Part shown: positions 22,784 to 25,709 of the stretch, piece by piece | Numbering within the stretch: position 1 is the stretch's first letter | Layout of the letters: every line of letters starts with the position of its first letter | Assembly: GCF_029227855.1 (NCBI RefSeq) | Contig: NZ_CP074356.1 | DNA from: Escherichia coli | Lineage (GTDB): Bacteria; Pseudomonadota; Gammaproteobacteria; Enterobacterales; Enterobacteriaceae | Strand: one strand, 5' to 3' | Length of the DNA stretch: 64,000 bases | Notes under the pieces: generated by a model | Database searches by the model: none | The model's input: only the letters and a program-made list of their open reading frames with translations | What the model was told of the DNA's origin: nothing | Translations under genes and position numbers: made by a program

Positions 22784-22966
22784 TCACAACCCGAAGATGT
22801 TTCTTTCGATTCATCATCGTGTTGCGAAAATTTGAGAGACTCACGAACAACTTTCGTTGTTCAGTGTTTCAATTTTCAGCTTGATCCAGATTTTTAAAGA
22901 GCAAAACTTCGCAGTGAACCTTTGCAGGTACACTCTGAAGTATTTTTTATTTAATCACTACAGAGA

Positions 22967-23229: not shown

Positions 23230-24771
<1,542 letters not shown>

Positions 24772-24903
24772 AAAAGTTTGATGCTCAAAGAATTAAACTT
24801 CGTAATGAATTACGTGTTCACTCTTGAGACTTGGTATTCATTTTTCGTCTTGCGACGTTAAGAATCCGTATCTTCGAGCGCCCACACAGATTGTCTGATA
24901 AAT

Positions 24904-24916
24904 TGTTAAAGAGCAG
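24904..24916 (-). promoter_or_regulatory. boxA antitermination element in rrn leader
   Basis: Reverse complement reads TGCTCTTTAACAA between P2 and 16S. Confidence 0.7.
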
Positions 24917-24949: not shown

Positions 24950-24990
24950 TGGCGTATATTACGCTTTCCTCTTTCAGAGTCAACCCTGAA
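24950..24990 (-). promoter_or_regulatory. rrnH P2 promoter
   Basis: Minus strand TTGACT (24978-24983) and TAATAT (24956-24961); matches the rrn P2 sequence TTGACTCTGAAAGAGGAAAGCGTAATATAC. Confidence 0.7.
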
Positions 24991-25059
24991 TTTCAGGATT
25001 TTTCTCTTCAACCGAACCGGCTGTTTGTGTGAAGTGATTCACATCCGCCGTGTCGATGG

Positions 25060-25120
25060 AGGCGCATTATAGGGAGTCGGCTCAGGAAGACAAGCGGAAA
25101 AATGCATTTTTATTTCAACC
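25060..25120 (-). promoter_or_regulatory. rrnH P1 promoter with AT-rich UP element
   Basis: Minus strand -35 CTTGTC (25088-25093), -10 TATAAT (25066-25071), GCGC discriminator; AT-rich 25094-25118; ~110 bp upstream of P2. Confidence 0.65.
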
Positions 25121-25136
25121 GCTCATCTTTTAATCA

Positions 25137-25709
25137 TTACGCCGGTTTTTGCTGCTTTTTTATCGCTTGCGGCAGGTCTGCCAGGCTATTTAACACCCAA
25201 TCTGCCGCGTTTTCTGCTTCAGGTGTAATAAGTTTACCCGTACGCACCAGCACTTTTGTTCCCACGTTCGCCGCAGCCGCTGCCTGCATATCTTCTAATT
25301 TATCGCCCACCATATAAGAAGCGGCCATATCAATATGCAAATAATCGCGTGCCGATAAAAGCATCCCCGGATGTGGTTTGCGGCAGTCGCAGACCTGGCG
25401 AAACTCTTCAACACTACCCTGCGGATGATGCGGGCAATAATAGATACCATCCAGATCGACATCGCGGTCCGCCAGCGACCAGTCCATCCACTCGGTCAGC
25501 GTTTCAAACTGTGCTTCAGTAAATTTACCGCGAGCAATGCCAGACTGGTTGGTTACTACCACCAGCGCAAAGCCCATTTTTTTTAGCTCGCGCATGGCGT
25601 CAATAACACCGTCGATAAATTCAAAGTTGTCGATCTCATGGACATAGCCGTGATCGACATTAATGGTGCCATCACGGTCAAGAAAAATTGCGGGTACGCT
25701 CTTCGCCAC
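25137..25709 (-). CDS. gmhB: D,D-heptose 1,7-bisphosphate phosphatase, 190 aa
   Basis: HAD motif FLDRDGTIN; matches GmhB/YaeD. Confidence 0.9.

Follow-up and report, generated by a model that had tools for sequence, protein, structure and literature searches.

The distal upstream region of the Escherichia coli rrnH P1 promoter lies within the 3' end of gmhB

Introduction

At the rrnB P1 promoter of Escherichia coli, site I gives most of the activation by Fis, and the distal Fis sites contribute little. The co-directional upstream gene murI ends at -82 of that promoter, which puts the classical Fis sites II and III of rrnB inside murI. The rrnH P1 promoter was reportedly characterised together with the other six rrn P1 promoters by Hirvonen and colleagues, in work that appeared in J Bacteriol (183:6305) in 2001.

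In the accessible text of Maeda et al. 2015 (PMC4696680), the tandem P1/P2 organisation of rrn promoters is described, the number of Fis sites proposed for each rrn promoter is given as three to five, and the gel-shift count of Fis sites at rrnH agrees with that of Hirvonen et al. 2001. The rrnH forward primer of that study anneals in gmhB, at 25288-25273 of the DNA analysed here, or -231 to -216 relative to the P1 start as placed below (PMC4696680). The published rrnH fragment therefore has its upstream end within gmhB, at -231, and the 3' part of the gene has in effect already been treated as rrnH promoter DNA. The portion of the article available to us deals with the same locus and discusses neither the coding overlap nor an evolutionary signature, and no explicit discussion of a gmhB/rrnH overlap was found in the literature searched. 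Here we describe the geometry of this overlap, the Fis sites predicted within it, and the pattern of conservation that it shows across the Enterobacteriaceae.

Results

In the window, by which we mean the whole 64,000-nucleotide stretch of DNA analysed, gmhB, rrnH P1, P2 and the 16S rRNA gene all lie on the minus strand (Table 1), and the K-12 annotation gives the order metN, gmhB, rrsH. A 949-bp query from the locus found matches, annotated as gmhB, in 5,425 of 5,426 complete E. coli genomes. In profile searches the gmhB product matched TIGR00213 with 333.6 bits (cut-off 149.6) and NF006506 with 284 bits (cut-off 178). PDB entry 2gmw differs from it by two substitutions across all 190 residues, and PDB entry 3l8e was matched as well. 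By these matches, the product is GmhB, the D-glycero-beta-D-manno-heptose 1,7-bisphosphate 7-phosphatase. The next in-frame stop after the gmhB TAA is a TGA. In the K-12 allele CAA replaces the TAA of the window, and gmhB ends at this TGA, at -79 to -77, to give 191 amino acids. The longer allele is the commoner one, with a protein cluster of 4,842 members compared with 753 for the 190-residue form, and the window strain carries the minority allele. Codon 160 (25230-25232, minus strand) encodes Leu in the window strain and Pro in 79 of 82 genomes including K-12, where the context reads GKPITPE.

The rrnH P1 hexamers show 10 of 12 matches in a promoter scan. We infer that transcription starts at A25057, because the context of the -10 hexamer and discriminator is nearly identical to that of rrnB P1 and takes the same form in all K-12 rrn P1 promoters; position -n is accordingly 25057+n. 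The TATAATGCGCC(A/T)CC context is common to all seven K-12 rrn P1 promoters. The features of an E. coli-type rrn P1 are thus present, namely the hexamers, the 16-bp spacer, a G+C-rich discriminator and an inferred start 9 nt past the -10 hexamer, and P2, the boxA sequence and the 16S rRNA gene all follow downstream. The leader sequence TGCTCTTTAACAA is taken to be boxA, a known element of rrn leaders. Further into the operon, an Rfam StyR-44 match (22791-22899, minus strand, 124.9 bits) lies directly upstream of the 23S rRNA gene, as expected in enterobacterial rrn operons.

Table 1 Features of the gmhB-rrnH region. Positions are relative to the inferred P1 start at A25057.
Feature	Coordinates	Strand	Position	Description
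gmhB CDS	25137..25709	minus		190 aa, GTG start, TAA stop at 25139-25137; from the open reading frame list
gmhB codons 184-187	25149..25160	minus	-103 to -92	AAA AAG CAG CAA; unusual synonymous conservation
Predicted Fis site III core	25184..25198	minus	centre -134	GGGTGTTAAATAGCC; gmhB codons 171-176 (W V L N S L)
Predicted Fis site II core	25141..25155	minus	centre -91	GCAGCAAAAACCGGC; third base of codon 185 to codon 190
Predicted Fis site I core	25121..25135	minus	centre -71	GATTAAAAGATGAGC; intergenic, consensus score 8.6
UP element region	25097..25117	minus	-60 to -40	TGAAATAAAAATGCATTTTTC; A/T-rich, intergenic
rrnH P1 core promoter	25057..25093	minus		-35 TTGTCT at 25093-25088, 16-bp spacer, -10 TATAAT at 25071-25066, discriminator GCGCCTCC
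rrnH P2 promoter	24956..24983	minus		-35 TTGACT, -10 TAATAT; promoter scan
boxA antitermination sequence	24903..24915	minus		TGCTCTTTAACAA; rrn leader, read from sequence
16S rRNA gene rrsH	23230..24771	minus		Rfam RF00177, 1577 bits; 5' end at 24771

The gmhB stop codon occupies -82 to -80. The -35 hexamer starts 44 bp past the last stop base, leaving 43 nt between them, and the distance of about 45 bp given in a first-pass annotation of this DNA is accurate. That annotation also placed the UP element on the last codons of gmhB, which is incorrect: the UP element, placed at -60 to -40 by its definition at rrn P1 promoters, lies 19 nt beyond the stop and overlaps no codon. This region is conserved in the 82 genomes described below. 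The core promoter, the UP position and a Fis-consensus site at -71 all fall within the 79 nt that separate the gmhB stop codon from the inferred P1 start, and in the window strain only the DNA upstream of -80 is common to the gmhB coding sequence and the P1 upstream region.

Fis sites were predicted with a simple, hand-made score for a 15-bp core (G at -7, C at +7, R/Y at -3/+3 and an A/T-rich centre), with every position scored. As a positive control, the score placed each of the three published rrnB P1 sites without offset, at -71, -102 and -143. A Fis-consensus site at exactly -71 was found in six of the seven K-12 rrn operons, being scored there in rrnA, rrnB, rrnC, rrnD and rrnG as well as in rrnH. 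At rrnH the highest scores were 9.0 at -134, 8.6 at -71, 7.3 at -122 and 7.0 at -91, where chance alone gives about 0.16 hits of at least 8.5, and about 2.3 hits of at least 7, per 175 bp. The strict Fis pattern GNNYRWWWWWYRNNC occurs 9 times in the 64-kb window against 9.4 occurrences expected, and so shows no enrichment; a single match is therefore weak evidence unless it is conserved. When scores were averaged over the 82 genomes, the three best means among the 578 positions of gmhB and the spacer were those at -134 (8.54), -71 (8.15) and -91 (7.43).

The site I core begins 1 nt after the gmhB stop in the window strain; all its flank positions match the consensus, and there is one G in the centre. 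In the 191-residue K-12 allele the TGA stop overlaps this core by 2 nt, including the invariant G-78. The other two centres, at -91 and -134, lie 20 and 63 bp from site I and are predicted Fis binding sites. The -91 core spans the last five sense codons of gmhB, and its G and C ends, A-tract and right half match the consensus, while its left half is poor in E. coli. The -134 core is a perfect match to GNNYRWWWWWYRNNC. The first-pass annotation had expected a Fis region reaching to about -150 to fall on gmhB. The upstream activating region, delimited as at rrnB P1, does enter the last ~25 codons, with the predicted -91 and -134 sites inside the gene, and the core of site I is intergenic. The refuting condition named in that annotation, Fis and UP elements entirely downstream of the stop, thus holds for the UP element and the site I core, which give most of the activation at the well-studied rrnB P1, and fails for the distal predicted sites, which lie within coding DNA.

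To compare this arrangement across species, genomes were scanned, one per species, yielding 80 Enterobacteriaceae loci encoding GmhB, which with the window and K-12 make 82 sequences. An rrn P1-like sequence follows gmhB in all 80 loci. Of the 80 loci, 72 extend far enough to contain TATAATGCG and 17 as far as the 5' end of the 16S rRNA gene; most contigs break in the rRNA operon. In the alignment of the window, K-12 and the 80 loci, none of the 82 sequences has an insertion or deletion between -200 and -10, and all 74 sequences that extend into the interval -9 to +45 have gaps there. The gmhB stop codon itself moves, starting at -97 (n = 1), -94 (10), -91 (7), -88 (52), -82 (11) or -79 (1), and the DNA past early stop codons has the same sequence as where it is translated.

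Within site I, G-78, the AAA at -74 to -72, T-68 and C-64 are invariant in the 82 genomes, and -77 to -75 vary freely. When the seven K-12 rrn P1 regions are compared, no column upstream of about -40 is invariant apart from G-78 and C-64. At the -91 site, the corresponding G-98 and C-84, on either side of the A-tract at -93 to -89, do not vary in any of the 82 genomes, and C-84 is invariant whether it is coding or non-coding. Four further Enterobacterales (Serratia marcescens, Yersinia ruckeri, Erwinia pyrifoliae and Hafnia paralvei) were also compared. In each, an rrn P1 again comes after gmhB, whose stop lies at -86 to -92, and Fis-scoring sites occur at -71 in 4/4 and at -91 (-90 in Erwinia). 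The -134 site is found in three of the four, with no high score there in Yersinia. The -91 cores of these other families (GCGGGTTTAATAGGC, GCGGATTAAATAAAC, GCGGTTTTAGTGCTC) retain both G-98 and C-84, although the bases between them have turned over, and the codon that holds G-98 encodes Lys, Met or Gln. A motif kept despite sequence turnover at -91 is, at the level of sequence, the pattern predicted for a protein-binding site.

The block from -103 to -84 could instead be a DNA element of another kind, such as phased A-tracts that curve the DNA, a binding site for H-NS or Lrp, or a distal point of contact with the alpha C-terminal domain of RNA polymerase. A-tracts do occur at -103 to -99, -93 to -89, -74 to -71 and in the UP element, the first two about 10 bp apart. 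H-NS binding at rrnA, rrnB and rrnH was detected by genomic SELEX according to the accessible text of Maeda et al. (PMC4696680), and the left half of the -91 core is, as noted, a poor Fis match in E. coli. However, an invariant G and C 14 bp apart around an A/T centre is the Fis signature, the two bases survive complete turnover of the sequence between them in Serratia, Yersinia and Hafnia, and curvature alone would not fix G-98 and C-84. We regard such an element as an unlikely explanation of the block, and favor its reading as a Fis site.

Codon entropy was examined at 159 degenerate codon columns with a conserved amino acid, with permutation p values. Codons 184-187 stood out. AAA is used at K184 in 81/82 sequences, AAG at K185 in 77/77, CAG at Q186 in 55/57 and CAA at Q187 in 58/60. 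K185 and K184 have the lowest codon entropies after the start codon among the 159 columns, and Q187 ranks seventh. The mean z of these four codons is -1.84 (permutation p = 0.0003), and only the 5' end of gmhB has lower synonymous diversity. AAG and CAA are minor codons at the other Lys and Gln columns of gmhB, which are polymorphic; because minor codons are fixed at 184-187, codon preference is not the explanation there. Under the -134 site, synonymous constraint on codons 172-176 was not significant (p = 0.14), so amino-acid conservation alone could maintain that site, and no synonymous constraint was seen at codons 160-170.

The extra nucleotide constraint in the gmhB 3' end is thus real but local, confined to -103 to -92 and not extending over the whole 3' end. 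The superimposed coding and regulatory constraint proposed in the first-pass annotation, and the unusual synonymous conservation that it suggested looking for, are borne out at codons 184-187; calling the constraint strong overstates the case, given the result at -134.

Two other places of low synonymous diversity were seen. Codon L179 (25173-25175, minus strand; -118 to -116), an isolated and strongly conserved site, is CTG in 76/82 sequences (z = -2.05) and lies outside all the predicted cores. The lowest synonymous diversity in the gene is at codons 4-18 (~25655-25700, minus strand), where, in a ranking of 5-codon windows, windows 5-9, 6-10 and 4-8 take first, third and fourth place. These codons adjoin the divergent metN-gmhB intergenic region, and their low diversity may reflect translation initiation or promoter overlap.

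The result at codons 184-187 bears on another account of the locus, mere adjacency, in which rrnH P1 depends on intergenic DNA alone and no functional regulatory load falls on the 3' end of gmhB. The UP element and the site I core are indeed downstream of the stop, site I gives most of the Fis activation at rrnB, and the -134 site lacks a significant synonymous signal. Against this stand the minor codons fixed at 184-187, the invariance of C-84 in coding and non-coding contexts alike, and the lack of any indel over 190 bp in 82 genomes, which together make adjacency alone improbable.

Conservation of codons 184-187 might also serve the translation or mRNA of gmhB, through the termination context, a codon-specific Lys-rich tail, or a slippery heptamer. 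The KKQQK tail is conserved in the Enterobacteriaceae, and A AAA AAG (25161-25155, minus strand), which is in the 0 frame and precedes the gmhB stop by five codons, has the form of a dnaX-type -1 shift motif. Yet the same DNA is conserved untranslated after early stops, the codon containing G-98 becomes Met or Gln in other families while the G stays, and the 1-187 construct of 3l8e crystallised without the last residues. A role in translation is accordingly very improbable, and selection on the DNA itself remains our preferred reading. As a candidate in its own right, a dnaX-type frameshift site at A AAA AAG was rejected: the heptamer is present in Escherichia, and its first base is C in 40/82 genomes.

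The C-terminal tail of GmhB was then considered as protein. Residues 182-190 lie outside the TIGR00213 model, which covers residues 6-181. The crystallised E. coli construct 3l8e comprises residues 1-187, and the C-termini of distant GmhB homologues are unrelated. Because the tail falls outside the model, is unrelated in distant homologues, is truncated in the 1-187 construct and ends at a wandering stop, these comparisons suggest that protein-level constraint on it is weak, and its sequence may be set mainly by the DNA element. A protein-level explanation of the tail is weakened by the non-conserved tails of distant homologues and by the persistence of the same DNA after early stops.

Transcription from gmhB would proceed towards the rrn promoters. 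A promoter and terminator scan found no terminator-like site on the minus strand between the gmhB stop and P1. The best RNA fold of 25200..25058 has a z of -1.77 and no U tract. As no intrinsic terminator separates the gene from the promoter, it is plausible from the sequence that gmhB transcription continues into P1, P2 and boxA; Rho-dependent termination or a roadblock at the occupied promoter are possible alternatives. In a read-through RNA (25088-25128, minus strand), AGAUGAGCGG from the 3' half of site I could pair with CCGCUUGUCU from the -35 region, with an inner A/U stem. This hairpin was considered as a terminator and rejected on the same z value of -1.77 and the lack of a U run.

Discussion

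The locus is, in our judgement, likely to be the known rrnH tandem-promoter region packed against the co-directional gmhB gene, with the core P1, the UP element and the -71 site in the gap, distal Fis dimers at -91 and -134 in gmhB, and selection acting on the DNA at site II. In this arrangement, two Fis dimers beyond the one at site I would bind at the cores centred on -91 and -134, which lie on roughly the same helical face as site I. Site II would occupy DNA encoding the Lys/Gln-rich tail, past the conserved HAD fold. Selection on the DNA, at G-98, C-84 and the A-tract, would fix synonymous positions and forbid indels and leave the stop codon free to move. If rrnB P1 is a guide, most of the activation would come from site I and the UP element, and the distal sites would add bending and a modest contribution. 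Transcripts of gmhB would probably either run into the rrn leader or be blocked at the occupied promoter. The distal rrnB Fis sites are minor, and the functional weight of the gmhB overlap may likewise be small.

The geometry reported earlier for this DNA is confirmed. Its interpretation holds for the distal part of the upstream region but is wrong about the UP element and the site I core.

A broader proposal is more tentative, and we would put it at somewhat below an even chance. The Lys/Gln-rich GmhB tail (IKKQQK...) and the wandering stop may be by-products of selection on rrnH upstream activating DNA, that is, on Fis site II and phased A-tracts, throughout the Enterobacterales, and rrnA, rrnB and rrnH may pay for such overlaps in weaker P1 activity. 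If so, the regulatory sequence of one operon would dictate the last residues of a neighbouring protein, GmhB.

In rrnA, rrnB and rrnH alike, co-directional upstream genes end between -77 and -86. In the accessible text of Maeda et al. 2015 (PMC4696680), these are the three operons with the weakest promoter activity and the three with an H-NS SELEX signal. The match between a co-directional gene and the weak activity and H-NS signal may be a coincidence or an effect of construct design. Elsewhere in K-12, clpB ends at -152 of rrnG P1, and the neighbours of rrnC, rrnD and rrnE are divergent.

For practical work, an rRNA promoter can be altered when the 3' end of gmhB, murI or hemG is deleted or recoded, and constructs for the rrnH promoter need to carry about 150 nt of gmhB. 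The locus also offers a small, clean example in which regulatory DNA freezes synonymous sites and spacing while the stop codon drifts, across the Enterobacterales. The understanding of rRNA regulation is unchanged by it; the comparative signature is a supporting detail and no surprise.

Compared with other cases of dual-use coding DNA, gmhB shares the freezing of synonymous positions where a predicted protein-binding motif overlaps codons. It differs in three ways: the promoter under control is that of the operon downstream, only a probably non-essential tail of the protein is affected by the overlap, and the position of the stop codon shifts inside the motif. The closest counterpart is rrnB P1 with murI, which shares the core promoter architecture of rrnH P1 and, like it, has a Fis-consensus site exactly at -71. 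There the co-directional murI ends at -82, compared with -80 or -77 for gmhB at rrnH, and the distal Fis sites lie in coding DNA in both. The distal sites of rrnB are at -102 and -143, whereas those beyond -71 at rrnH, at -91 and -134, are predictions, and the rrnH UP element is a poorer match to consensus than that of rrnB. At rrnA P1 the co-directional hemG likewise ends close to the promoter, at -86, and a Fis-consensus site again lies at -71, but the upstream gene and the sequence beyond -80 are unrelated to those of rrnH. The layout described here is therefore ordinary and already known in kind, and it is implicit in the published rrnH fragments and in genome annotation.
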